DNA of 64,000 nt from a virus. The DNA lies in the IMG/VR virus record IMGVR_UViG_3300045825_000202, positions 1 through 64,000 of that record. One strand, given 5' to 3'. The stretch's first letter is position 1; the number at the start of each line of letters is the position of its first letter. Position numbers and translations under genes: made by a program. Below, piece after piece: positions 1-17,315 of the stretch. Below the pieces are notes generated by a model. It did no database searches, was not told the DNA's origin, and worked only from the letters and a program-made list of their open reading frames with translations.

Positions 1-42
1 ATTGGTTTATGTGTTTGACGAGTTTGCGCGACTGGAGTAACT

Positions 43-276
43 ATGAGTACAATTGAAGCATTAGAATTAGCAGTAGATACACTAAAAAGTAACTATAGTG
101 AAGAATACGCAGAAGTACTGAACACTTTAAATGACACAATCGAGTTTGAGAAGTGTAAGCTAGCTAAACTTCCAGTAGAGGGCTCTGTTAGGGCAACCCT
201 AGCAATTGACGCTATGATGAAAGAATATAATTATCCTTGTAATCCTGCTAACGCGGCTAGGTTGTATAATCAATGA
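43..276 (+). CDS. hypothetical protein
   Basis: 77-aa ORF with GGAG RBS; stop overlaps the next start. Confidence 0.6.
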   Translation: MSTIEALELAVDTLKSNYSEEYAEVLNTLNDTIEFEKCKLAKLPVEGSVRATLAIDAMMKEYNYPCNPANAARLYNQ

Positions 277-785
277 GTTACGGCATCTATAAAATTATGA
301 TTGGAGGCTTACCTTATGTAGGTAAGTCATCTAATATTGAGCAACGTTTCTTAAGGCACAAAAGTGCTTTTGAAGCAGGTACTCAAGCTGCTAAACTTCA
401 GGCGGCTTACGATAAGTATAAAGACGCTGAAATGTCTATACTAGAACATACTTATGTAGATAAAGACCTATTAGCTAGGAAAGAAGTTTTTTGGATTAAG
501 AAACTTAACTCTATTAATAATGGCTGGAATACTAGAGGTGATTCATCTGCGGACAAAGTATATACTTGGGAAGAGCAACAAATTCTAGCAGCTTTTATTA
601 TGATTCTAGATAAAGTACCTGATACTGATATTTGTGTAGAAACTGGACTAACCCCTAAGATGCTACAGACTATTAGGCAAGGTACTAACTATGGTTGGTT
701 AGCACTAGAATTCCCTAAAGAGTATAATCAGATGAGAGTATATACTAAACCTACGGGCTACTCAAAATATTATAAAAATTTCTGA
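273..785 (+). CDS. GIY-YIG homing endonuclease
   Basis: N-terminal GIYKI...YVGKS...R...H, E...I and N-GWN motifs of the GIY-YIG family. Confidence 0.85.
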   Translation: MSYGIYKIMIGGLPYVGKSSNIEQRFLRHKSAFEAGTQAAKLQAAYDKYKDAEMSILEHTYVDKDLLARKEVFWIKKLNSINNGWNTRGDSSADKVYTWEEQQILAAFIMILDKVPDTDICVETGLTPKMLQTIRQGTNYGWLALEFPKEYNQMRVYTKPTGYSKYYKNF

Positions 786-845
786 TGCTAAAGCAATTTT
801 AATCGCTAAAATCTAAAATATACTACAAGCATAAAAATAATGCAC

Positions 846-874
846 TTTACAAATATGTTTTCATAAGGTATAAT
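846..874 (+). promoter_or_regulatory. sigma70-type promoter
   Basis: TTTACA-17 bp-TATAAT with an A-rich UP element. Confidence 0.7.
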
Positions 875-1016
875 TGTATTAACAGATCTAAAAGATCATC
901 TGCATATCGATAGATATTTGTGAAACAGGCACATTTCCCCCGCTAGACTAGAGGGGCGGTGGAAATTTGTATTGTTTCTACAAATATCTATCTAGATACA
1001 TGCAGATTAATACAAT
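873..1016. repeat. long imperfect inverted repeat (rod-like hairpin)
   Basis: Arms ATCTGCAT..GATAGATATTTGT.GAAACA / TGTTTC.ACAAATATCTATC..ATGCAGAT, plus outer ATTGTATTAA/TTAATACAAT. Confidence 0.85.
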
Positions 1017-1297
1017 GAATAATTACGTAAAAAATTAAGAGATAAATTCTTGATTAAAAATGGGATTTCTACCGTTTAAGAAACTGAATCGACTTCCCCC
1101 ACTTTAAAAGGGTTTTCGATTGCTAAAAGTCTAATACAGGATGAACTATTAATATAACTTTCCCACTTACTAATATTCCCAGCTAAGGGATTCTTTAGCA
1201 TTACTAGAAACCACACCCATACTAGTAGCATTATACATTATAGCCCTGCATTCGCTATAACTTAGGGTCAAGAGATATATCTCAATAAAGGAATCAA

Positions 1298-2305
1298 ATG
1301 CCACGTTTCTCTCCCACTCGAAAAGTCTTTACTAGTGTAAGTAAGGATATCAAAGATATTCCATTTCAGGAAGTGTTTGAAATATACAAGGAAGCCCAAC
1401 AGCAGGTATTAGCAGATGCTGAAACCTATGCAGATGAAGTATATCAGACAAAGATTAAAAGACTAGAACAGAACTATAACGATAATAACCCGGAAGAAGG
1501 AGCCTATGAAGGTAACTTTGATGAAGTAGTAAGTAAGCCTAAAGTATCCGTACCTGCTGGTATGATAGAAAAAGCAACAACAGATGCTATCAATGCCGGT
1601 TTTCTAAAAAAGTACGGTATTGAGATACATTCAGATTGGATAATGCCACAAGTCGTAACACTACTAGGGTCGATGCCTACGTATAAGAATAGTAACGGAA
1701 AGTTATCTGGATTACAGTTTAAGCGTAATAACTTTACTAGTGATTGGCTTAAAGGCATCTTTACAATGACAATGATTAGTACTAAAGGTGGCTATCTAAA
1801 GTATATGTACAAATCCCCGGCAAAAGACTATGCCGCACTAACCCCTCTAGTATTATACTCTCAAAAGCTTGTTAAAGGTACATTATACAACGAGTGGGAT
1901 CCAGAGGAGATTGGTCATATTGTACATTCAGAACTTGCTGAGGCTATGTTATATGAAGTACCTGAACTTACTTTAGCTAATATTATTGCTAATCGTACTG
2001 AGGGGTTAACTATTAAATCTGGTGCTTCAAAAGGCGAGGTTAAGAACCCCCTAACCACTTCTAGGTTAACAGGATTATCAAATCCTGACTTTAGACAAAT
2101 ACCCTATCTAGTTCAAATAATGCTAACTCAAATATGGTTAGCGCATCCTGCTAATAGAACAAAGTATATGATCCTAGACCCTAGTAATTGGGATAATAAA
2201 GGGGGCATGCCTGTTCCAATCATTGCGGCAGATGTACTAAGAGGGCCTAATACGGGTACTGCCTCTTCTACATCTAGTAAGCTAGTTACAACAGGACTAT
2301 GGTAG
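1298..2305 (+). CDS. hypothetical protein (early region)
   Basis: 335-aa ORF with AAGGA RBS; no motif recognised. Confidence 0.8.
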   Translation: MPRFSPTRKVFTSVSKDIKDIPFQEVFEIYKEAQQQVLADAETYADEVYQTKIKRLEQNYNDNNPEEGAYEGNFDEVVSKPKVSVPAGMIEKATTDAINAGFLKKYGIEIHSDWIMPQVVTLLGSMPTYKNSNGKLSGLQFKRNNFTSDWLKGIFTMTMISTKGGYLKYMYKSPAKDYAALTPLVLYSQKLVKGTLYNEWDPEEIGHIVHSELAEAMLYEVPELTLANIIANRTEGLTIKSGASKGEVKNPLTTSRLTGLSNPDFRQIPYLVQIMLTQIWLAHPANRTKYMILDPSNWDNKGGMPVPIIAADVLRGPNTGTASSTSSKLVTTGLW

Positions 2306-2424
2306 TATAACTTAAACCTGACCCTAGGTTGCGCAAATAGATGCCTCGCTACTTAGGGTCATAATAAATTTACATAAACTTAGTGCCGAAGGCACCAATC
2401 TATACACCCTAGGGAATACCATTT

Positions 2425-2679
2425 GCTACACTTATGCGAAGCATAAACTCGCTACACCCTAGGGAATGCTATACTTATGCGAAGCATAAACTCGCTACAC
2501 CTTAGGGAATGCTACACTTATGCGAAGCATAAACTCGCTACACCCTAGGGAATGCTATACTTATGCGAAGCATAAACTCGCTACACCCTAGGGAATGCTA
2601 TACTTATGCGAAGCATAAACTCGCTACACCCTAGGGAATGCTATACTTATGCGAAGCATAAACTCGCTACACCCTAGGG
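2425..2679. repeat. six tandem 43-bp repeats
   Basis: Unit GCTAYACTTATGCGAAGCATAAACTCGCTACACCCTAGGGAAT; CTTATGC recurs at 2431, 2474, 2517, 2560, 2603 and 2646. Confidence 0.95.
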
Positions 2680-2723
2680 TCAGATTAACTTAAGTAATAA
2701 CCCAAATAATTCAAGTAAAAACA

Positions 2724-3071
2724 ATGAAATACTCACACGAGCTGACAACTAGGATTTTGCACTATTACGGCCCTGGGGGTCTTTCGGTGCCTGAAATCGC
2801 TAAGATCCTATCAGACGAATTAGGTGAAACAGTACCAGAACGGTCCCTAATTGCTAAACTTAGTACACTAGGGGTATACGTAAAGAAGCAATATCTTACT
2901 AAACGGGGAGAAATTCCAGTTCGAAAAGAAGAATATCTGCAGAAAATCGCAGATATCTTAGAAATTGACGTAGAAAGTCTAGAAAGCCTCTCAAAAGCTA
3001 ATAAAAACATCTTAATCCTTTTAGCTGGGTTAGTTAAGCCTATTACTAAAGAAATGCTAGAAGCCGAATAA
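2724..3071 (+). CDS. A2-like DNA-binding protein (paralogue of 7095-7472)
   Basis: Shares RS(L/I)IAKLS, YVK..Y.TK.G...V.KE and NK..L..L motifs with 7095-7472. Confidence 0.75.
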   Translation: MKYSHELTTRILHYYGPGGLSVPEIAKILSDELGETVPERSLIAKLSTLGVYVKKQYLTKRGEIPVRKEEYLQKIADILEIDVESLESLSKANKNILILLAGLVKPITKEMLEAE

Positions 3072-3107
3072 AAAAGCTGCTACAATTTGATTTGTAGCAG
3101 CTTTTTT
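3072..3107 (+). terminator. intrinsic terminator
   Basis: AAGCTGCTACAA/TTGTAGCAGCTT stem followed by a T run. Confidence 0.85.
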
Positions 3108-3665
3108 AGTTTCTGACCCTATGGCTTGGCAAACTTACCTTAATTATAGATACTAAATGCTGGAAGCATAAACTTGCTACAACTTAGGGTCAGGTAGATA
3201 GGCCCCCTGTTACGGACGATAGGGCTGGCGAGGTTCCTGAGTAAAAGTTTATTAGTATAGTTATCGATATTGCTAGCAATATCACTGCATTAAATAATTT
3301 TAGATAGATTGTGAAAACTAATTCCACGCAGCAGACTGTATGAGAAGGACAAGTCTGGCTGTAAATATCCTTCTAGAATTGGCTCGATAAATTTTTTCCG
3401 TTTATACTAGTATAATGCGAATTGGGTGCGTTAGCACAAACCTGCACAACTTAGGGTCAGAAACTAACTAAAAATATTATTGCTATGGTTATATGTTAGA
3501 ATATTTTAGTATAACATTTTTGTACTAGCACTACAATTGACCCTAAGTTACAGCGACTTGTCACACTAATGAGAATCCCTTCTAGATTGGTATAATTTTA
3601 GAAGTTTTAGAAGTTTTTAAGAAGTTTTTAAGAATCGCTACAACCTAGGGTCGAGAAATTTAGTA

Positions 3666-3694
3666 TTGACACTATGTTACTAAAGTAGTATAAT
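3666..3694 (+). promoter_or_regulatory. sigma70 promoter
   Basis: Perfect TTGACA-17-TATAAT. Confidence 0.85.
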
Positions 3695-3906
3695 TAACGC
3701 ATACACCAAAGTATATAGAACTGGACAGTCTCTCGATTTATCGTTTGCTCGCTTGGTCCGACCGTGGTAGGTGCTTTAATAGAGTCCTCCTCCTATGTAA
3801 TAGTGATTGTAGTCCTTCGCCTGTACTCTATTTTAGTGAGTCAGGCTAAACGTATTTGTAGTAGAGGATTAGGGTCGCTAAAACCTAGGGTCGGGAAAAT
3901 TTAGTG

Positions 3907-3935
3907 TTGACTTACGTTTGCAATTGCAGTATAAT
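3907..3935 (+). promoter_or_regulatory. sigma70 promoter
   Basis: TTGACT-17-TATAAT upstream of the GGAG RBS of the next ORF. Confidence 0.8.
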
Positions 3936-4256
3936 ATACATATGCACTTACAAATGGAGAAATATATGCATAAAAATTTAATAGACGCCGGAGTTAATTT
4001 CCCAGTATGGTGGAACGAAGCATTAGTACTAGAAGCAATTTCCACACTAGATACTTTAGACTTATATGAGTATTTTAATAAGCCAAACGCAACTAGCTTT
4101 ACTAGGTTTATGAAACCGTATTTTCCAAATCGTCCAAGTAATATGCCTTATAGCAGGTACGTGCGTAACCTATTAGCAAATGGTGATGCACTAACTCGCT
4201 CGTTTGGCGCTGCATGCTTATATTATACACCCAATAGGGGGCCTAGTCAAGACTAA
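3918..4256 (+). CDS. hypothetical protein (true start probably ATG at 3966)
   Basis: GGAGA RBS precedes MHKNLID; the promoter overlaps the annotated TTG start. Confidence 0.6.
   Translation: MQLQYNIHMHLQMEKYMHKNLIDAGVNFPVWWNEALVLEAISTLDTLDLYEYFNKPNATSFTRFMKPYFPNRPSNMPYSRYVRNLLANGDALTRSFGAACLYYTPNRGPSQD
4222..4250 (-). promoter_or_regulatory. sigma70 promoter, leftward
   Basis: Reverse complement reads TTGACT-17-TATAAT. Confidence 0.7.
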
Positions 4257-4357
4257 GTTTCTATAGGTCGCCCTGAGTAAACGCTATTCTGACCCTAGGG
4301 TGCACATATAGATGCTAAAGCATTAACTTGCGTAAATATAGCATAACAGCTAAAACT

Positions 4358-4390
4358 AAAGCCGCTTTGACTATAAATCAAAGCGGCTTT
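4358..4390. terminator. bidirectional intrinsic terminator
   Basis: 13-bp stem AAAGCCGCTTTGA/TCAAAGCGGCTTT. Confidence 0.85.
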
Positions 4391-4867
4391 CTTGCGGAAC
4401 AAACTTTATAGGCTTGCTAGAACTATTAAGAGCGACCTAATAGTTTTTGGTAGTTCACTCACGACTTTCGTAATGAGTATAGCTAGTGAAATCGAACTTC
4501 ACATTCCTGGTGAAAACCAGATACTTGTATTGTACTATAGCTGTATTTTAAAAGACTTCTTTGTCTACTAGTAATCCCTTAGTGAGGACGTTTCTACCTG
4601 TTTCGGGTCAGGAATTAGTACAATGCGCTAATTACGCCCATCAAGTTTAACGTCATTGAGAGAAGACGATAGTAGCTAATACAATTTAACCTATCAAGGG
4701 CACTACTAGACCAAATTTAACCACTGGGTCGCGTGGAATGAGATTAACGTCATCATTTTAGACGTCGAATAGCTAGATTTACTTTCCTTTTAAGCTATAC
4801 TTAACATAGCACTATACCCTTAAACTATCGGTATTGAGGTGGCCGATATCAGTAAAGCTGATATACT

Positions 4868-5005
4868 CCTTTACTATAAGATCAAAACTAGGCGGGTATG
4901 GGAAGACCCGTGCGATTCGGACTAGTCCGAGCAGTTTGCGACTGAGCAATATTACTATTACTCCTTATAGTTTCGGCCTTGTTTAGGTAAGGCCTCATCA
5001 GAAGG
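4868..5005 (-). ncRNA. type I hammerhead ribozyme (HH-B)
   Basis: Minus strand: CCUU-CUGAUGA-GGCCUU(ACCUAAAC)AAGGCC-GAAA-CUAUAAG...CUUAUAG-UA|AAGG; stems I, II and III all pair; predicted cut at 4872/4871. Confidence 0.88.
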
Positions 5006-5007
5006 TA

Positions 5008-5140
5008 ACCTTTACCCTAAGTTGCATAAGTTCGTTAAGTAGGAGAGTACTCAAGCAGAACCAGCTGATGACTATAGGGTTTCGACTATTATTTATGGAT
5101 GAACTAGTTCATCACTATGCGGCAAGTCTCATCAGAAGAT
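5008..5140 (-). ncRNA. type I hammerhead ribozyme (HH-A)
   Basis: Minus strand: AUCUU-CUGAUGA-GACU...AGUC-GAAA-CCCUA...UAGGG-UA|AAGGU; predicted cut at 5013/5012. Confidence 0.82.
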
Positions 5141-5452
5141 TCCGCAGTCACTAGTCACTAGTGACGAAGATGGCCAGTGCTGAGGTTTGTCACTGTTTAA
5201 GGAATTAATTCGCAGCCGGAACTCCTAGCACTGTAGACGTTAGCGCGTTAGCGCAATTCTCTACAACTTAGTGTCCGGTGATATTTAAGCGACCTCATAA
5301 CCACCAAATTAATTAGATTGAGCGCATCGTCAAAACGTTATTACTAAGAATCATCGGTATTGAATCTTATACGCACTTCAAAATACTAGACTAACCTATT
5401 GCCTCCGGGTTACTTAGTGCGTATTGCGGTCGAAGCTAGGGTCTGTCTATCA

Positions 5453-5770
5453 ATTATACACTTTATTAAGCAGAGAATCAAGACAATTTTTTCACTATCA
5501 TATCAGTCAAAACGTTTCTTATATCTCTATGTATCTATTATACACTACGAAGACCTAGCGACGCAAGTGTAAATTTTCATTACTTATTACATAAAATCTT
5601 TCGTATATGGTTATACTACTTTTCTTTTCTGATATATTATTATACGATATTTTAAGATAGAATTCAAGTATAAATTCTTGAATGTTACGAGTATTTATAC
5701 TTAGAAACTGAGTTGAACGGGTCTTTTGTTTTCATAAAATAATTATAACAAATTTCAAAATTTTATTCAA
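5453..5770 (-). promoter_or_regulatory. four tandem leftward sigma70 promoters
   Basis: TTGATT-17-TATAAT (5481-5453), TTGCGT-18-TATAAT (5566-5537), TTGAAT-17-TATAAT (5667-5639), TTGAAT-17-TATAAT (5770-5742). Confidence 0.85.
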
Positions 5771-5886
5771 GTGGTTATTTTCATACTCTCATTAGTACTA
5801 AGTCACGCGGCCCACTAATATGTTTCTAGAAAATTCTATTGACCACTGGCGCTCAAATTGCTAGCAATTTGATAGCATAGGTATAC

Positions 5887-6002
5887 TTAAGCGGTTGGTT
5901 ATATAAGCGGTGGATTATATAAGCGGTGGGTTATATAAGCGGTGGATTATATAAGCGGTGGGTTATATAAGCGGTGGGTTGTATAAGCGGTGGGTTATAT
6001 AA
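5887..6002. repeat. 16-bp tandem repeat TTATATAAGCGGTGGR (about 7 copies)
   Basis: Full units start at 5899, 5915, 5931, 5947, 5963 and 5979, with partial flanking units. Confidence 0.95.
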
Positions 6003-6229
6003 CTTTATAAGCATGTACTGATATTCCAACTTGGCATGCTTGATGCTAAGGCATAAAATGTGCCAAGCCCTAGGGTCGACAGTAAAGCAAGATTCATACC
6101 AAGTATTTATTTTTAGCAAAGTTGGCACATCGCACAAATCAGCGTATAATGAGGTTGTGAAAGGCCGAGCAAGGCCGCGCAAAATTTGGCGCTAACTTAT
6201 ATAAGCCTTTGCTTATATAAGTGATAAAA

Positions 6230-6272
6230 AATAAAACCCGCTGGACAAATAGCATCCAGCGGGTTTATTTTT
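6230..6272 (-). terminator. intrinsic terminator of the pre-early cluster
   Basis: AAACCCGCTGGA/TCCAGCGGGTTT stem with A/T tails. Confidence 0.8.
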
Positions 6273-6507
6273 ATTTCAACTCAGCATTAAAGGACAACCC
6301 GTCACATTCTGCCAAATCGCGCATACAGAAAAACGTATAATTTGGCAGGTTAGATGTAACCCATTGCTTACAGTATTCTTCCCAGTCTTTTTCAACCTTA
6401 TCACAATCTTTTTCAAATTGCGGCCAATTAGGAGGACCATTATATTTTTCGTCTTCTTCATTTGGATAAGGCAAGTAGTCGGGTACATCAATTTCAATAT
6501 AAATCAT
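6271..6507 (-). CDS. hypothetical pre-early protein
   Basis: 78-aa acidic ORF with AGGA RBS, ending at the terminator. Confidence 0.65.
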   Translation of the reverse strand: MIYIEIDVPDYLPYPNEEDEKYNGPPNWPQFEKDCDKVEKDWEEYCKQWVTSNLPNYTFFCMRDLAECDGLSFNAELK

Positions 6508-7614: not shown

Positions 7615-9231
7615 TTAAAGAAAAATAATTTGTCGCTGCCCATTCTGCCAAGTAACGATCGAAGCTAACCGCCACGAACTTGGCCCGATATTATACCCCA
7701 TATCAAGCTCGCAACATCCGGCGGTATAACAGCCGCCTATGATGCTAGGCGAATGAGTGTGGCCTGTGTTCATTTTAACGCCAAGCCCCGCCAGTTGCTG
7801 AGGTGAGCCGCGAGAGCCGTTAGCGCCCGTGTGGCCGTGGCACCCCATCTCAATTCCTGCCAAAATCAATGATTCGTCTGTGCTATGGAAAACGATATTA
7901 TCTTGAATAAGCCCGCCAAATTCACCCACCACATATTCTAGCATATTGAACGGCTCTTTGTACCCAGCATCAATATATTTATATAATTCTAGCATACATT
8001 GAAGATATAAAATAGCATTAGTAGGATCTGCTTTATAATCCTCACTCTTGAGCCATGTATTAATAGCTAGATCGTGGTTAGATTCTATAATGTGCGTCAT
8101 TCGATCATACTCAGCGGATAACTTATATATTACATTAGCTACTTTAATAATATCCTTTTCAACGGTATTGCCTTTAGTATGTTGACCGAACATAAAGGTA
8201 CAATCTTTCACATTATGATGATTCCTACTGCTAAAGTCCATTACATCATGCAAGACAGTATGGTATGGGTTAAATTTCTCCAGATGTTCAACTAACATAT
8301 CTAGGTTATTGCTAGATAATCTTTCTGCGTGAATATCCCCGAACTGTAAAGCAATGGGCCTCTGCCCCGTAATAACTTCATTAGCAGAATAATAGTTACC
8401 CTCGTCATAGAATCCATCACATCCCGGCATAATCTCCAAATGTCTAGCAGTCAGTACCCCATTTTTAACGGATACATACAGTGCACTAATGTTGTGCATA
8501 CTTGCCGCGACAGCACCGGCTTTACGTAATATATAATTACGCCGAGTGATACTACCCGTGCTAAACAACAGTTTCCCTTCACCATTTTTTAGTGCCGCCG
8601 TTGCCTTCAATGTAATTTTACTTGCAGGTATACACACCGACACACCTACAGGTGTAATGCTCTCAAAACCACTTAAAGGACCCTTGGCCGTTGGATTCAC
8701 GTTGGCTTGGCCGATAAAATGTATAACGCCACCTAAACTAATTTGACCCTCTACAATATATTTTACAATGGCAGGATCATAATAAATACCATCAGTAGCA
8801 TCTTGTGCAACCATAAACCCGGCCTTGTTATAGGTCATTTTTGCTACCATAATTATAGCATTATTATGCTCTGCAAAAGTTTCCAATGCACTCAAAGCCA
8901 CCATATCAACATCAGTGTTATTTTGCGCAACCGTTAACACATAGTTTCCCTCAGGATACTCCTGTACGTGTCCAGATGCGCTATCCGTGCCGCTAGACAA
9001 TGGTTTTGCGGCGTCTGACTCGATCTTATCAAAAGCCTTTTTAATTCGGTTTTGTGAGACTTCATGACGACGACTTACTTCAGCCTGCAAGATAACTAAT
9101 ACAGTATATTTATCAGCATTTTCAAATTCTTGTAGTTCAAGCAGTTCACCGAGCAGGACTTCGCGCTTCTCTTCAGACTTTGCACGAAAATAGCCCATAG
9201 TTTGCGCAGTTAAGATAGTTTGCTGTTTCAT
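7615..9231 (-). CDS. A1: T5 A1-like protein (second-step transfer / host DNA degradation), metallophosphoesterase fold
   Basis: 538 aa; AQNNT, GDIH, HD, SNHD, HGH.G.NGSRGS and GHTHS motifs. Confidence 0.85.
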   Translation of the reverse strand: MKQQTILTAQTMGYFRAKSEEKREVLLGELLELQEFENADKYTVLVILQAEVSRRHEVSQNRIKKAFDKIESDAAKPLSSGTDSASGHVQEYPEGNYVLTVAQNNTDVDMVALSALETFAEHNNAIIMVAKMTYNKAGFMVAQDATDGIYYDPAIVKYIVEGQISLGGVIHFIGQANVNPTAKGPLSGFESITPVGVSVCIPASKITLKATAALKNGEGKLLFSTGSITRRNYILRKAGAVAASMHNISALYVSVKNGVLTARHLEIMPGCDGFYDEGNYYSANEVITGQRPIALQFGDIHAERLSSNNLDMLVEHLEKFNPYHTVLHDVMDFSSRNHHNVKDCTFMFGQHTKGNTVEKDIIKVANVIYKLSAEYDRMTHIIESNHDLAINTWLKSEDYKADPTNAILYLQCMLELYKYIDAGYKEPFNMLEYVVGEFGGLIQDNIVFHSTDESLILAGIEMGCHGHTGANGSRGSPQQLAGLGVKMNTGHTHSPSIIGGCYTAGCCELDMGYNIGPSSWRLASIVTWQNGQRQIIFL

Positions 9232-9306
9232 AATGTTTACCTGAAAATAGAATAGTGTCTATCTTAACACATCAGTTTAAAACCTAAACTGATAAAGGAT
9301 TATAAC

Positions 9307-9804
9307 TTATTTACAAGGAACCCAGACTAATTTCTTACAATTACCGTCAAAGGTCGCCCTATCGCCAAAGATCGCCCAATGGCCAAAGATCGCCCAATTA
9401 CCAAAGGTCGCTTCATCACCAAAGGTCGTCCAATCGCCAAAGATCGCTTCATCACCAAAGGTCGCCCTATCGCCAAAGGTCACCCTATCGCCAAAGATCG
9501 CCCTATCGCCAAAGATCGCCCAATTACCAAAGGTCGCCCTATCGCCAAAGATCGCTTCATCACCAAAGGTCGCCCTATCGCCAAAGATCGCCCAATGGCC
9601 AAAGATCGCCCAATTACCAAAGGTCGCTTCATCACCAAAGGTCGTCCAATCGCCAAAGATCGCTTCATCACCAAAGATCGCCCCCTTGCCAAAGGTCGCC
9701 CTATCGCCAAAATACGAAACTAGGGAATAGTCCCCCATAGGACATTCTCTAACACCATCCACGATAGGTAGGGTATTAAACTCAGCTTGTGTGTATTGTT
9801 TCAT
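9307..9804 (-). CDS. hexapeptide-repeat (beta-helix) protein
   Basis: About 20 repeats of FG[DNH][REW][AT][TI], encoded by 18-bp DNA repeats. Confidence 0.8.
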   Translation of the reverse strand: MKQYTQAEFNTLPIVDGVRECPMGDYSLVSYFGDRATFGKGAIFGDEAIFGDWTTFGDEATFGNWAIFGHWAIFGDRATFGDEAIFGDRATFGNWAIFGDRAIFGDRVTFGDRATFGDEAIFGDWTTFGDEATFGNWAIFGHWAIFGDRATFDGNCKKLVWVPCK

Positions 9805-9810
9805 AATATA

Positions 9811-9906
9811 TTACTCGAAAATCTCAAAAAGCCACATAGAAAAAGCAGTTAGTGCAACTAGTGGTACGTATACGATAAATTCGAAAGCCTTTCTAAATAA
9901 TTTCAT
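9811..9906 (-). CDS. small membrane peptide
   Basis: MKLFRKAFEFIVYVPLVALTAFSMWLFEIFE, starting just after the HAD stop. Confidence 0.45.
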   Translation of the reverse strand: MKLFRKAFEFIVYVPLVALTAFSMWLFEIFE

Positions 9907-9907
9907 A

Positions 9908-10444
9908 TTATACCCCAATTCTAGCATTGATTTTATGTGCGCAAAGCACGGGAAACAGTGAGCGAAGCGCATATTTAACAGGCTTTGCATCATCGAACAT
10001 TATAACCTGTTTACCCTTAAATTGTTTTAACTTCAAAAAGGGCTTAATCCAAGTCATTTTGTAGTCACCATCCTTCATTTTATAGTGCTTTTCGCTTTTA
10101 CATTGATCTCGCGACATAATCTTATGATAGGGCAGGTTATTACGCTGCAAGAACTGATAGTCACAACTTTGCATATCCCTTGCAGTTAGGATAATAATAT
10201 AATCCCCCATTGCGTGCCTATCTCGCATCAGTTTAGCTATCGGTAATAACTTATCTTTTGCTACGTTTTTAGGTGTATGGTTTTTAATATACGCCTCTAG
10301 GTTAAGCGTACCATCAGGAAAATTAGGTGTTCGGTGACTTGAATTAATACAAGTCTCGTCAAGATCAAAAATAATTATATTTTTCATATCAACAAATAAC
10401 GTAAAATTCTTGAACAAATGCAGTATAAGAATCATTAGATTCAT
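9908..10444 (-). CDS. HAD-family phosphatase, T5 Dmp-like (start probably 10387)
   Basis: IIFDLDET motif I, LTAR motif II, K and FDD motif IV; location in the pre-early cluster. Confidence 0.8.
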   Translation of the reverse strand: MNLMILILHLFKNFTLFVDMKNIIIFDLDETCINSSHRTPNFPDGTLNLEAYIKNHTPKNVAKDKLLPIAKLMRDRHAMGDYIIILTARDMQSCDYQFLQRNNLPYHKIMSRDQCKSEKHYKMKDGDYKMTWIKPFLKLKQFKGKQVIMFDDAKPVKYALRSLFPVLCAHKINARIGV

Positions 10445-16112: not shown

Positions 16113-17315
16113 ATGCCTATGCAATGGTATAACCCAATAAGCTGGTTTACATCAGATAAATCTAATCCAGCTCAGTCGGTAATCGGAATTCAAGAAGGTA
16201 GTAATTTAGCTACTACTTCTAAGTATAGTTATAAGACTGCTTTTGATAAACTTGAAGCAGTTAATAGAGGAGTAGGACTACTAGTAGGCGGATGTTCTAG
16301 TCTAGACTACGATATTAGAGATAAAGTTATTGATGGTGTAGTAAACAACGTTAGAATCAAATCACTACATAATCTATTAAACTTTAGACCTAACCCATAT
16401 CAATCAGTACAAGACTTTAGAACCAATATATTTACAGACTTCATTCTAGAAGGTAATATATTTATTTACTATGATGGGGCCTTCTTATACCATCTACCTG
16501 CCGCTAATGTTCAAATCATAACAGATACTAAAACTCTAGTTGCGGAGTTTATTTATAATGGTATTGTGCACATGAAGCCAGAAGAGGTTATTCATGTGAA
16601 AGACGTTAGCAGCCATTCAATATATAGAGGATCTAGTCGTCTAGCCGCTGCAGATAGAAATATTAAGATCCTTTTTGCTATGGAAAATTTTCAAGAACAA
16701 TTTTTTGAGAACGGGGCAGTGGCGGGTATTGTACTAACTACAGATAATACCCTTAGTCAGATTGCTAAAGATAAGACTATAGCTAACTGGTCACAGAAAT
16801 ATAGTCCTAAGAATGGTGCTCGTAGACCAATGATCCTAGATAGTGGACTTAAGCCTAATCCTCTTAGTTCTACCTCTTTTCAGGAACTTGATTTTGACCA
16901 GAGCATTCAAACCCATGACGCTAAGATTTTAAAAGCTCTAGGCGTTCCGCCTATCCTTTTAGATGGGGGCAACAATGCTAATATATCTCCTAATCTAAGA
17001 CTGTTCTACTTAGAAACAGTTATCCCAATTGTTACAAAGTACGTATCCGCGATTGAACGTTACTTTGGGTATGATGTAGCCCCAATAACTGCTGATGTAT
17101 CTGCGCTTCAACCAGATATTAAAGATGTTGCTAGCTATCATTCCACTTTAGTTAACGCAGGTATTCTTACCCCTAATGAGGCTAGAGTAGAATTACGTTA
17201 CCCTAAACTACCTGGTGCTGATGAAATACGAATTCCTGCTAATATTGCAGGGTCTGCTTCTAATCCTAGTGTAGGCGGTGCACCTAAAAAACCGGACGCA
17301 CCACAACCACCATAA
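16113..17315 (+). CDS. portal protein (HK97 family)
   Basis: PNPYQ, GN, F.NGA, GVPP.LL and LTPNEAR motifs. Confidence 0.95.
   Translation: MPMQWYNPISWFTSDKSNPAQSVIGIQEGSNLATTSKYSYKTAFDKLEAVNRGVGLLVGGCSSLDYDIRDKVIDGVVNNVRIKSLHNLLNFRPNPYQSVQDFRTNIFTDFILEGNIFIYYDGAFLYHLPAANVQIITDTKTLVAEFIYNGIVHMKPEEVIHVKDVSSHSIYRGSSRLAAADRNIKILFAMENFQEQFFENGAVAGIVLTTDNTLSQIAKDKTIANWSQKYSPKNGARRPMILDSGLKPNPLSSTSFQELDFDQSIQTHDAKILKALGVPPILLDGGNNANISPNLRLFYLETVIPIVTKYVSAIERYFGYDVAPITADVSALQPDIKDVASYHSTLVNAGILTPNEARVELRYPKLPGADEIRIPANIAGSASNPSVGGAPKKPDAPQPP

Follow-up and report, generated by a model that had tools for sequence, protein, structure and literature searches.

Hammerhead ribozymes of bacteria and phages number in the thousands, and their role is largely unsettled. 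Type I hammerheads (Rfam clan CL00010), known from bacteria, prophages and phages, are present in phage transcripts, frequently with several near one another, and are thought to process long RNAs (PMC3088659). A long-arm hammerhead found by pattern scan behind phage tRNA-Glu combines a stem III of ACYCUA/UAGGGU, a GUH cut and a long stem III arm; its copies lie in phages without A1, mostly adjoining tRNA genes. Retrozymes and viroid-like RNAs have hammerhead cuts at both ends of the unit and yield small RNAs able to circularise (de la Pena and Cervera 2017, PMC5680766). Synthetic insulators of the RiboJ type place a ribozyme behind variable promoters, which results in a uniform 5' end. In plant and fungal RNA viruses, coremin (xrRNA-C) and its Watson-Crick variant xrRNA-WCC are built on a 4-bp hairpin, with a loop that pairs with the end of a spacer and a next hairpin directly adjoining (PMC10520033, PMC10321173). 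The injection stop signal of T5 is located where the terminal repeat has its inner end, in a direct-repeat-rich, gene-free gap of 1.7-2 kb with pre-early genes on one side and converging early genes on the other (Davison, bioRxiv 10.1101/866236; NC_005859 9140-10149). This T5 region holds eight DnaA boxes and conserved palindromes, and no transcript or ribozyme is known from it.

The locus described here shares features with each of these systems. It was found in an uncultured T5-like wetland phage whose 95.8-kb genome is recorded as a linear metagenome contig without end repeats; the window is the 64,000-nucleotide stretch of this record that was analysed. A gene-free gap of 2 kb is bounded by the A1 (DNA-transfer) operon on one side and by converging genes on the other, with the tRNA cluster further on. 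Directly behind the A1 operon, on the minus strand at 4358-5770, is a unit best explained, with somewhat better than even confidence, as a stand-alone non-coding RNA gene that matures by self-cleavage. No match to positions 4200-6100 was found among deposited phages by megablast or blastn. Literature searches agree with the statement of an earlier sequence-only reading that no T5-like system of this layout has been described. The features of the locus are as follows.

6266..6234, terminator of the A1 operon (terminator scan)
5888..6002, no strand assigned, tandem repeat of 16 bp, 7.2 copies
5453..5770, minus strand, promoter cluster, three sigma70-like promoters and one weaker candidate
5770..5742, minus strand, sigma70-like promoter, TTGAAT-17-TATAAT, 10/12 (promoter scan)
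5667..5639, minus strand, sigma70-like promoter, TTGAAT-17-TATAAT, 10/12 (promoter scan)
5566..5537, minus strand, weaker promoter candidate, TTGCGT-18-TATAAT, 9/12, weak -35, below the scan threshold and read from the sequence
5481..5453, minus strand, sigma70-like promoter, TTGATT-17-TATAAT, 10/12 (promoter scan)
4358..5446, minus strand, non-coding transcript body, spanning about 1,090 nt between nearest promoter and terminator
5005..5143, minus strand, type I hammerhead 1, HH1 (descriptor scan and external covariance model)
4864..5009, minus strand, type I hammerhead 2, HH2 (external model, descriptor scan and sub-threshold Rfam match)
4872..5012, minus strand, predicted 141-nt RNA between the cut sites (fragment folding)
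4641..4764, minus strand, three predicted H-type pseudoknots under a common descriptor, at 4764-4737, 4736-4709 and 4668-4641
4390..4358, minus strand, intrinsic terminator hairpin of 15 pairs with a 3-nt loop, followed by a short U run

The sequence-only reading had described four near-consensus promoters 85-105 bp apart. The spacing holds (103, 101 and 85 bp), and three of the promoters are good; the fourth is weak. A genome-wide scan found about 0.4 sigma70-like sites per kb-strand, so a group of three on the same strand in 320 bp exceeds the expectation about 20-fold. Elsewhere in this genome, the minus strand of the early/tRNA region has promoter sequences of a similar kind. From the start site closest to the RNA body, near 5446, the transcript would run to the terminator hairpin, which had been read as 13 bp and measures 15 pairs. 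This hairpin is palindromic and also ends the converging plus-strand genes. The claim that about 1,090 nt lack an ORF of 60 aa or more was borne out: there is none in 4403-5770, where the longest frame is 59 aa and lies on the opposite strand, and no conserved peptide emerged when every frame of the unit was compared by tblastn with the gaps of the relatives. The unit does contain short ORFs, of 36-59 aa. Judged by these predictions, a host-type promoter cluster reads leftward into about 1.1 kb without coding capacity, with a strong hairpin terminator at its end. The many further hairpins that had been proposed fared less well. The terminator region (4340-4499) has a folding z-score of -4.5, while the mean z-scores are only modestly negative on the sense strand (-1.4) and the antisense strand (-1.1), compared to -0.2 for a coding control.

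Two hammerheads, each with a long stem III arm, lie in tandem in the transcript, as the sequence-only reading had claimed for the pair. Both have the complete type I core (C3-U4-G5-A6-N7-G8-A9, G12-A13-A14, an A15.1-U16.1 pair and an NUH triplet), seen here as CUGAUGA ... GAAA with a closing A-U pair and a GUA triplet where the cut falls. In HH1, stem I is AAUCUU/AAGGUU, the CUGAUGA core starts at 5135 and GAAA is at 5083; stems II (GACU/AGUC) and III (ACCCUA/UAGGGU) carry inserts of 35 nt and 55 nt, respectively. The predicted cut is at 5013/5012 (GUA|AAGG), after A5013. In HH2, stem I is a 4-bp helix (CCUU/AAGG), the core is at 5001 and GAAA at 4974, stem II is GGCCUU/AAGGCC, and stem III has 9 bp with a branching insert of about 80 nt. 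Its predicted cut is at 4872/4871 (GUA|AAGG), after A4872. The HH2 core can alternatively fold as a type III hammerhead onto the first cut site.

A covariance model was built from 14 hammerheads of the tRNA-Glu-associated family, all from unrelated phage contigs without A1 and with no T5-like copies included. This external model detects both ribozymes on the sense strand, HH2 at 38.6 bits (E ~1e-8) and HH1 at 26.1 bits (E ~4e-7). Shuffles of the window gave 0.28 hammerhead descriptor matches on average, and a search of the 95.8-kb genome turned up no credible hammerhead-like site beyond these two. Rfam, the first check proposed for the unit, returned nothing at the gathering thresholds in the whole window. 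Its best match was RF00008 (Hammerhead_3), at 28.7 bits against a cut-off of 48.5, at 5020..4965; this match represents the core of HH2 when it folds onto the first cut site. The failure to reach threshold is attributed to the long inserts in stems II and III; the related phage hammerhead family also misses the gathering score. From core, helices and model scores, both copies are real type I ribozymes, with self-cleavage predicted. In the minimum free energy folds, stems II and III of HH2 are formed, whereas the core of HH1 is tied up in an alternative helix. Since stem I of HH2 has only 4 bp and the HH1 core is sequestered, activity may be low or regulated.

These ribozymes have the same catalytic core, three-helix junction and open stem I as known type I hammerheads, and differ from them in three respects. 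Their stem III arms are 50-90 nt long, with the 35-nt insert in HH1 stem II, and no Rfam model reaches threshold. They lie in a dedicated non-coding unit rather than between genes, and the two copies share a strand, so that their stems I interlock. Unlike the tRNA-Glu family, they are far from the tRNA cluster, in a promoter-driven non-coding RNA behind the A1 operon.

Comparison with relatives supports the claim of a dedicated non-coding unit with self-cleaving ribozymes. Two relatives, L008 and L006, have A1 proteins 56-57% identical to that of the window phage and show the same order of promoter cluster, non-coding RNA, hammerhead and terminator (L008 13390-14268; L006 15505-17190). At the syntenic place the external model finds one hammerhead in each, at 49.8 bits in L008 and 39.5 bits in L006; Rfam in E-value mode finds no hammerhead in these relatives. 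Stems I-III differ among the window, L008 and L006 and still pair through compensating changes. Stem II is different in all four T5-like copies (GACU, GGCCUU, GUUUC, GAGCA) and pairs in all, and the L008 homologue has the same stem III and cut-site context as HH1. RNAalifold on the 14 independent phage copies found compensatory changes in 10 of 17 pairs. After the T5-like copies were added, in an alignment fitted to the covariance model, 95% of cells were paired compared to 71% in shuffles, and 12 of the 17 pairs had changed on both sides. Outside the ribozyme, the RNA body shows no sequence conservation: when the three RNAs were compared by blastn and by shared k-mers, the promoters, the cut site and the ribozyme core were recovered and nothing else, and UCUGAUGA is the sole 8-mer common to all three. 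The alignments thus point to the hammerhead, with its covarying stems, as the one element conserved across the equivalent RNAs of related phages. A1 relatives reach 69% identity (Logan contigs), and the comparison of the unit covers L008 and L006. A metagenome scan added only relatives that are more distant and have no hammerheads, and three DNA sequencing runs over the ribozymes gave fragmentary contigs with no usable variation; a search of sequencing runs for the locus found no RNA run that contains it. In a sub-clade of T5-like phages, the gene-free gap behind the A1 operon is occupied by a transcription unit that is missing from classical T5.

The arrangement suggests how the RNA would mature. 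HH1 would cut after 5013 and HH2 after 4872, both co-transcriptionally, which would remove promoter-dependent 5' leaders of about 430-720 nt. The products would be a 141-nt RNA containing a ribozyme and a 3' RNA of about 515 nt, which would receive a defined 5'-OH end regardless of the promoter fired. Decay entering at this 5'-OH end, through an RNase J-type exonuclease or through RNase E scanning, may be stalled by three coremin-like pseudoknots inside the 3' RNA, and the distal ~280 nt, capped by the terminator hairpin, could then accumulate as a stable product. The 5'-OH product left by the glmS ribozyme is degraded by RNase J1, an enzyme that viral xrRNAs are able to block in vitro. Against this scheme are the lack of a pseudoknot unit behind the L008 ribozyme, the single hammerhead of the relatives and the modest z-scores.

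Another possible explanation is that the 141-nt RNA is itself the product, closed into a small circular RNA by the ribozyme or a ligase, with the flanks as a by-product. This is unlikely, yet it accounts for several details. Each cut site has the sequence GUA|AAGG, and the partner strand of each stem I has YCUU at its end, so the CCUU strand of HH2 can pair with AAGG at either site; an identity of four bases is expected about once in 256 by chance. The 141-nt RNA holds all of HH2 and is predicted to fold as a closed hammerhead bounded by the two cuts, with its ends side by side and joinable within the fold, and the Rfam type III match is exactly that closed form. The minimum free energy fold of the fragment already has stems II and III, and the full hammerhead fold costs +1.0 kcal/mol in the linear form and +0.2 kcal/mol in the circular form. 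The genome also encodes a protein with an Rnl2-type RNA ligase domain, and in another phage contig (L182) tRNA-Glu and a hammerhead together form a 193-nt tandem repeat, from which unit-length RNAs would likewise be released. The closed-form stem I, on the other hand, has just 4 bp with a 3-nt loop. The ends of the excised RNA would be 5'-OH and 2',3'-cyclic phosphate, whereas an Rnl2-type ligase requires 5'-phosphate and 3'-OH; a search of the genome found neither RtcB nor a kinase. Since L008 and L006 carry one hammerhead rather than two, they have no equivalent excised unit, and conservation does not extend to the 141-nt piece. Perreault et al. 2011 (PMC3088659) searched for circles made from tandem prophage hammerheads and detected none. 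Compared to retrozymes and viroid-like RNAs, the unit has no repeat or retroelement features and no RNA replication, and the RNA, whose circle is predicted, would be made from a lytic DNA phage.

The pseudoknots bear on the preferred maturation scheme and on a more elaborate version of it. Of the four units claimed for the array, three fit one descriptor and the fourth, which sits between them, is weaker. Each predicted pseudoknot is about 28 nt long, with a 4-bp stem, a loop of 8-10 nt, a UUAA(A) linker and a tail complementary to the loop; the units carry GACG-UUAAAC, GACG-UUAAUC and GUGG-UUAAAU. The array lies 105-230 nt downstream of the second cut and contains a coremin-like GACGUUAA(AC) element. 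The descriptor, which was drawn up after the units had been seen, has 16 matches genome-wide, three of them in the array, a number reached by none of 2,000 shuffles; the units are predictions without covariation support. They resemble coremin in the hairpin strand and spacer, GUCCGAAGACGUUAAACUAC (PMC10520033), or as 3' strand plus spacer GACGUUAAAC, and the xrRNA-WCC variant in the Watson-Crick pairing of loop and spacer (PMC10321173), with a further hairpin directly adjoining. The differences are that the loops (UAAAAUGAU, GCGACCCA, UUCUCUCAAU) lack the coremin consensus YGAD/YGNNAD, that the pseudoknot stem has 4-5 bp compared to 3 bp in coremin, and that the setting is a bacterial host without Xrn1, where exonuclease resistance is a prediction. 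L006 has one similar unit at 16534-16563, 205 nt downstream of its cut, with the full conserved coremin spacer GUUAAACUAC, a 10-mer that occurs at chance rate across all fetched loci. No unit was found downstream of the ribozyme in L008. A match to the coremin spacer in another contig, L010, was judged to be chance. No coremin-like units lie behind the hammerheads of the other phage family, so the pairing of ribozyme and pseudoknot is not general.

In the fullest version, maturation would be programmed: interlocked hammerheads would excise a circularising 141-nt RNA, the 5'-OH end would feed a 5'-to-3' nuclease, and the coremin-like pseudoknots would stop it and leave a stable non-coding RNA, from a unit at the boundary of the first-transferred DNA that acts early. 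This complete sequence of events is quite doubtful. If true, it would be a bacterial-virus counterpart of the flavivirus and plant-virus subgenomic RNAs made with xrRNAs.

The boundary itself could instead be what matters. The region might act mainly as DNA, with repeats that serve as a stop or protein-binding site and promoters that load RNA polymerase to draw in or remodel DNA or to prime replication; the transcript would then be incidental, with ribozymes that serve merely for its disposal. T7 draws its genome in through a cluster of strong early promoters. The position between the A1 operon and converging genes, with a tRNA cluster beyond, is as in T5, and the tandem repeats fit as well, since they lie directly upstream of the promoters both here, in the gene-free gap between the A1-operon terminator and the promoter cluster, and in L008; relatives carry analogous but unrelated repeats at the same place. 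An RNA body without sequence conservation would also be expected. The sequence-only reading had placed the unit at the equivalent of the T5 stop signal, and in this only synteny stands; even there, the pre-early operon that flanks the T5 gap is T5.011-T5.017, not the A1 operon. Pairwise comparison of the neighbouring 335-aa, 125-aa and 115-aa proteins with T5.011 and A2 found no similarity. The hallmark of the T5 signal is DnaA boxes in a fixed arrangement (Davison, 10.1101/866236), and TTWTNCACA has no match on either strand of 4200-6400. Neither the sequence nor the repeat order resembles T5-like stop-signal regions, the 16-bp repeat being unrelated, and the gap is mostly a transcription unit. 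In T5 itself, searches of the gap with promoter and terminator scans, with Rfam and with the hammerhead model recovered nothing comparable, neither a promoter cluster nor a hammerhead. Identity with the T5 injection stop signal is therefore not supported. Nor is there support for the expression early in infection and the regulation of second-step transfer that the sequence-only reading had proposed. Moreover, the terminator stops transcription after 1.1 kb, the contig shows no end repeats that would place the genome ends, and a purely incidental RNA would not be expected to maintain, in several lineages, a ribozyme whose changes compensate one another. A role mainly as DNA is distinctly improbable on this evidence.

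It is very improbable that the pseudoknot array is an anti-defence decoy, freed by the ribozymes and imitating a type III antitoxin RNA (ToxI-like) or some other host RNA. Phages are known to escape by encoding pseudo-ToxI, and tandem small pseudoknots of about 28 nt would suit such a route. However, ToxI-like RNAs are near-identical tandem repeats next to a ToxN-type toxin gene, and the units here differ in sequence. Neither a toxin gene nor a toxin-linked relative was found, and neither the unit nor its immediate flanks have an ORF of at least 60 aa; L008 lacks the array, and Rfam finds nothing in it at E up to 10. That the signals are due to chance or that the region encodes small proteins, as the missed Rfam thresholds and the 36-59 aa frames might suggest, has next to no probability given the external model E-values (~1e-8 and 4e-7), the compensatory changes in syntenic homologues and the lack of a conserved peptide.

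The stand-alone non-coding RNA gene thus remains the preferred reading, and within it the ribozyme is the one conserved feature. Like the synthetic insulators, the ribozymes lie behind variable promoters. The whole locus is compact, at about 1.4 kb, and could be expressed as a system from a plasmid. Its ribozyme subtype, a type I hammerhead whose stem III arm is long, is found widely in phage contigs and escapes the current Rfam models.

Judged by similarity, the source virus is a distant T5-like phage, since its closest named relatives are T5-like phages and share only ~40% identity with it. It comes from a wetland metagenome: the IMG/VR virus record is 95.8 kb long (~90% complete), and the window is its first 64 kb. 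Gene order in this phage is A1 operon, repeats, non-coding unit, converging genes and then, at 78-89.5 kb, a tRNA cluster. The unit is a predicted minus-strand transcript (4358-5446) with its promoter cluster (5453-5770), and its surroundings are as follows:

9908-10444, minus strand: HAD-family phosphatase (178 aa) of the A1 operon, weakly matching the polynucleotide-kinase phosphatase domain; probable T5 dmp counterpart
7615-9231, minus strand: A1-type DNA transfer protein (phrog_1745, E 9e-145)
6266..6234, minus strand: terminator ending the leftward A1 operon (terminator scan)
5888-6002: 16-bp tandem repeat (7.2 copies, consensus TAAGCGGTGGGTTATA) between that terminator and the promoter cluster
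4257-6270: gene-free gap between the A1 operon and the converging genes, containing the unit
ending at 4256, plus strand: HNH endonuclease, 335-aa protein, 115-aa DNA-binding protein and 112-aa protein, converging from the left
G000:C1:78228-89496 (full record, outside the window), minus strand: 15 tRNA genes, as in T5-like phages

The sequence-only reading had called this region injection-stop-equivalent. T5 itself has its stop signal (9140-10149) within a 1.66-kb stretch free of genes, with the rightward pre-early operon on one side and early genes converging from the other (10.1101/866236). Gene order in the source phage is compatible with the T5 map, but this region has none of the DnaA boxes by which the T5 signal is defined, and the neighbouring proteins have no similarity to T5.011 or A2. 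The label is plausible but unproven.

The unit is bounded by the following elements, all on the minus strand:

5770..5742: promoter-like site, 10/12 (promoter scan)
5667..5639: promoter-like site, 10/12 (promoter scan)
5566..5537: weaker fourth site, TTGCGT-18-TATAAT (read from the sequence)
5481..5453: promoter-like site, 10/12 (promoter scan)
4390..4358: terminator hairpin, 15 pairs (terminator scan)

Thus, three of the four near-consensus sigma70 promoters proposed earlier stand, while the fourth is weaker. Such sites occur genome-wide at only ~0.4 per kb-strand, and those on the minus strand are concentrated in the early/tRNA region. For these reasons, the cluster is not due to chance and looks like ordinary promoters of this phage. 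The gene-free body and closing terminator were also borne out: no ORF of at least 60 aa lies between 5446 and the terminator, no reading frame conserved in relatives was found in the unit, and the hairpin has 15 pairs rather than the 13 bp first described.

The unit contains two type I hammerhead ribozymes, both on the minus strand and found by descriptor scan:

HH1 (upstream): core 5135, GAAA 5083, predicted cut after A5013
HH2 (downstream): core 5001, GAAA 4974, predicted cut after A4872

Shuffled windows gave a mean of 0.28 hits with this descriptor, and the rest of the genome gave no further credible hit. For an independent family, IMG/VR was scanned with a pattern for the hammerhead core and stem III, which returned 24 loci, and a covariance model was built solely from 14 of these. 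This external model recovered both ribozymes, adjacent and on the sense strand (HH2 38.6 bits, HH1 26.1 bits), with no other match above 6 bits within the unit, and so agrees with the earlier claim of two complete hammerheads. In the suggested Rfam comparison, the sole match was sub-threshold Hammerhead_3 (5020..4965, 28.7 bits, E 0.0016), which is the HH2 core folded type III-fashion onto the first cut site.

The two ribozymes are interlocked. Both share the same cut-site context, GUA before the cut and AAGG after it. HH1 stem I has AAGGUU (5012-5007) as its 3' strand, and the adjoining CCUU (5005-5002) serves as the 5' strand of HH2 stem I; this CCUU can pair with AAGG after the second cut or, as a small hairpin, with AAGG after the first. 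The HH1 core (CUGAUGAGACU) also has a complement, AGUCAUCAG, within the HH1 stem III insert (window 5064-5135, minus strand). In the MFE prediction HH1 forms this helix in place of the active fold; this alternative is a possible inactive conformer and may be a switch.

Together the 24 loci make up one coherent family, whose type I hammerheads have a ~50-nt stem III arm and are missed by Rfam models. The family is widespread in phage contigs (L166-L190; e.g., L182:8020-8395, L187:357-623, L177:14371-14634), and A1 was absent from the five complete or near-complete records checked (~100 kb each). In several contigs the hammerhead lies 10-100 nt behind tRNA-Glu(ttc), and in L182 a 193-nt segment comprising tRNA-Glu and the hammerhead is duplicated in tandem; no hammerhead was found among the 15 tRNA genes of the source phage. 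One contig (L169:2231-9485, minus strand) has seven model matches on one strand over ~7 kb, six of them short forms of ~53 nt, a pattern suggestive of transcripts punctuated by ribozymes. That hammerheads occur in phage and prophage transcripts, often in groups, is already known (PMC3088659).

Related loci were retrieved by alignment of A1 homologues. In L008 and L006/L009 (A1 57% and 56% identical to the window copy), the order is A1 operon, terminator, tandem repeats, three-promoter cluster, an ORF-free 0.9-1.7 kb, terminator and converging genes; the L008 repeats occupy the position of window 5888-6002 but are different ones. A single type I hammerhead lies on the sense strand of each locus (covariance model, 49.8 bits in L008 and 39.5 bits in L006). 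Stem II differs among the four T5-like copies (GACU, GGCCUU, GUUUC, GAGCA), and stems I and III vary yet pair in all. Covariation, also proposed as a check, was evident: when 24 copies were aligned by fitting to the model, 95% of cells were paired versus 71% in shuffles, and both sides had changed in 12 of 17 pairs. The ribozyme is therefore conserved, while the three RNAs (window, L008, L006) otherwise share no sequence: their sole 8-mer in common is UCUGAUGA, and blastn matches just promoters and cut-site context. No hammerhead lies at the equivalent place in T5 or the more distant A1 relatives L010, L011, L013, L014, L086 and L089. Behind the A1 operon of L086 (7280-8352; A1 52% identical) are two small promoter-plus-terminator non-coding units without hammerheads, and transcribed gene-free units here may be common across the wider clade.

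Cleavage at both sites would release a 141-nt RNA (5012..4872) with the whole of HH2 inside, and the fold would hold its 5'-OH end next to its cyclic-phosphate end. In the MFE fold of this RNA, stems II and III are already formed, and stem I can be added at a cost of 0.2-1.0 kcal/mol. A circular 141-nt RNA could thus be the product, as this predicted fold permits self-ligation, but a circle cannot be the conserved function of the unit since relatives carry a single ribozyme. Outside the window, a 326-aa RNA ligase domain protein (PF09414, 47.7 bits; G000:C1:73034-74014, equal to L192:3035-4015, minus strand) is encoded just ahead of a split NAD-dependent DNA ligase and could be relevant to RNA end joining; neither a kinase nor RtcB, sought in the same connection, was found.

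Downstream of the cut sites are three predicted pseudoknot units (minus strand, descriptor):

4764-4737: predicted pseudoknot unit
4736-4709: predicted pseudoknot unit
4668-4641: predicted pseudoknot unit

All three fit one scheme, in which a stem of 4 bp with a loop of 8-10 nt is followed by a UUAA(A) linker and then by a 4-5 nt tail that can pair with the loop. The descriptor, drawn up after the units had been seen, has 16 matches genome-wide, three of them inside the 126 nt of the array, a level reached by 0 of 2,000 shuffles of the unit. Since the descriptor is post hoc and relatives provide no covariation, the small-pseudoknot array claimed earlier stays a prediction. Two window units include GACGUUAA(AC), resembling the coremin motif of plant viruses, GUCCGAAGACGUUAAACUAC (PMC10520033). 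L006 has a comparable unit 205 nt downstream from its own cut site; this unit contains GCGUUAAACUAC, and its loop and tail are matched by Watson-Crick pairs, like those of the xrRNA-WCC variant (PMC10321173). However, the window loops lack the required YGAD/YGNNAD consensus, across 4.9 Mb of loci the coremin 10-mer is not enriched beyond chance, and L008 lacks a coremin-like unit. Consequently, we infer a possible role as an exonuclease or scanning block and do not claim membership of the coremin family.

We prefer a four-step maturation. The unit would be a non-coding RNA gene whose promoter-dependent leaders are removed by ribozyme cleavage, leaving a defined 5'-OH end; 5'-to-3' decay would be limited by the pseudoknot array, and the 3' end protected by the terminator hairpin. 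What the sequence analysis shows is the layout, the identity of the ribozymes and their conservation; transcription, in vivo cleavage, stalling of a nuclease and any function beyond these are inferred. This reading is favored over the circle, over a promoter and repeat region acting at the DNA level, and over an antitoxin-like decoy. A literature search found no paper linking hammerheads with T5-like phages, in line with the earlier statement that no such T5-like layout had been described. New here are the setting behind the A1 operon of a T5-like sub-clade, in a dedicated non-coding unit with promoters of its own, an interlocked hammerhead pair predicted to excise a ribozyme-bearing 141-mer, ribozymes juxtaposed with predicted coremin-like pseudoknots, and a long-armed hammerhead subtype failed by Rfam models.

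For TAGGGT[AC], the two strands of the 95.8-kb genome together have 77 occurrences versus ~23 expected; these are dense in window 1-6100 and often lie within CCCTAGGG. At the first cut site, the same hexamer also makes up the 3' strand of stem III.
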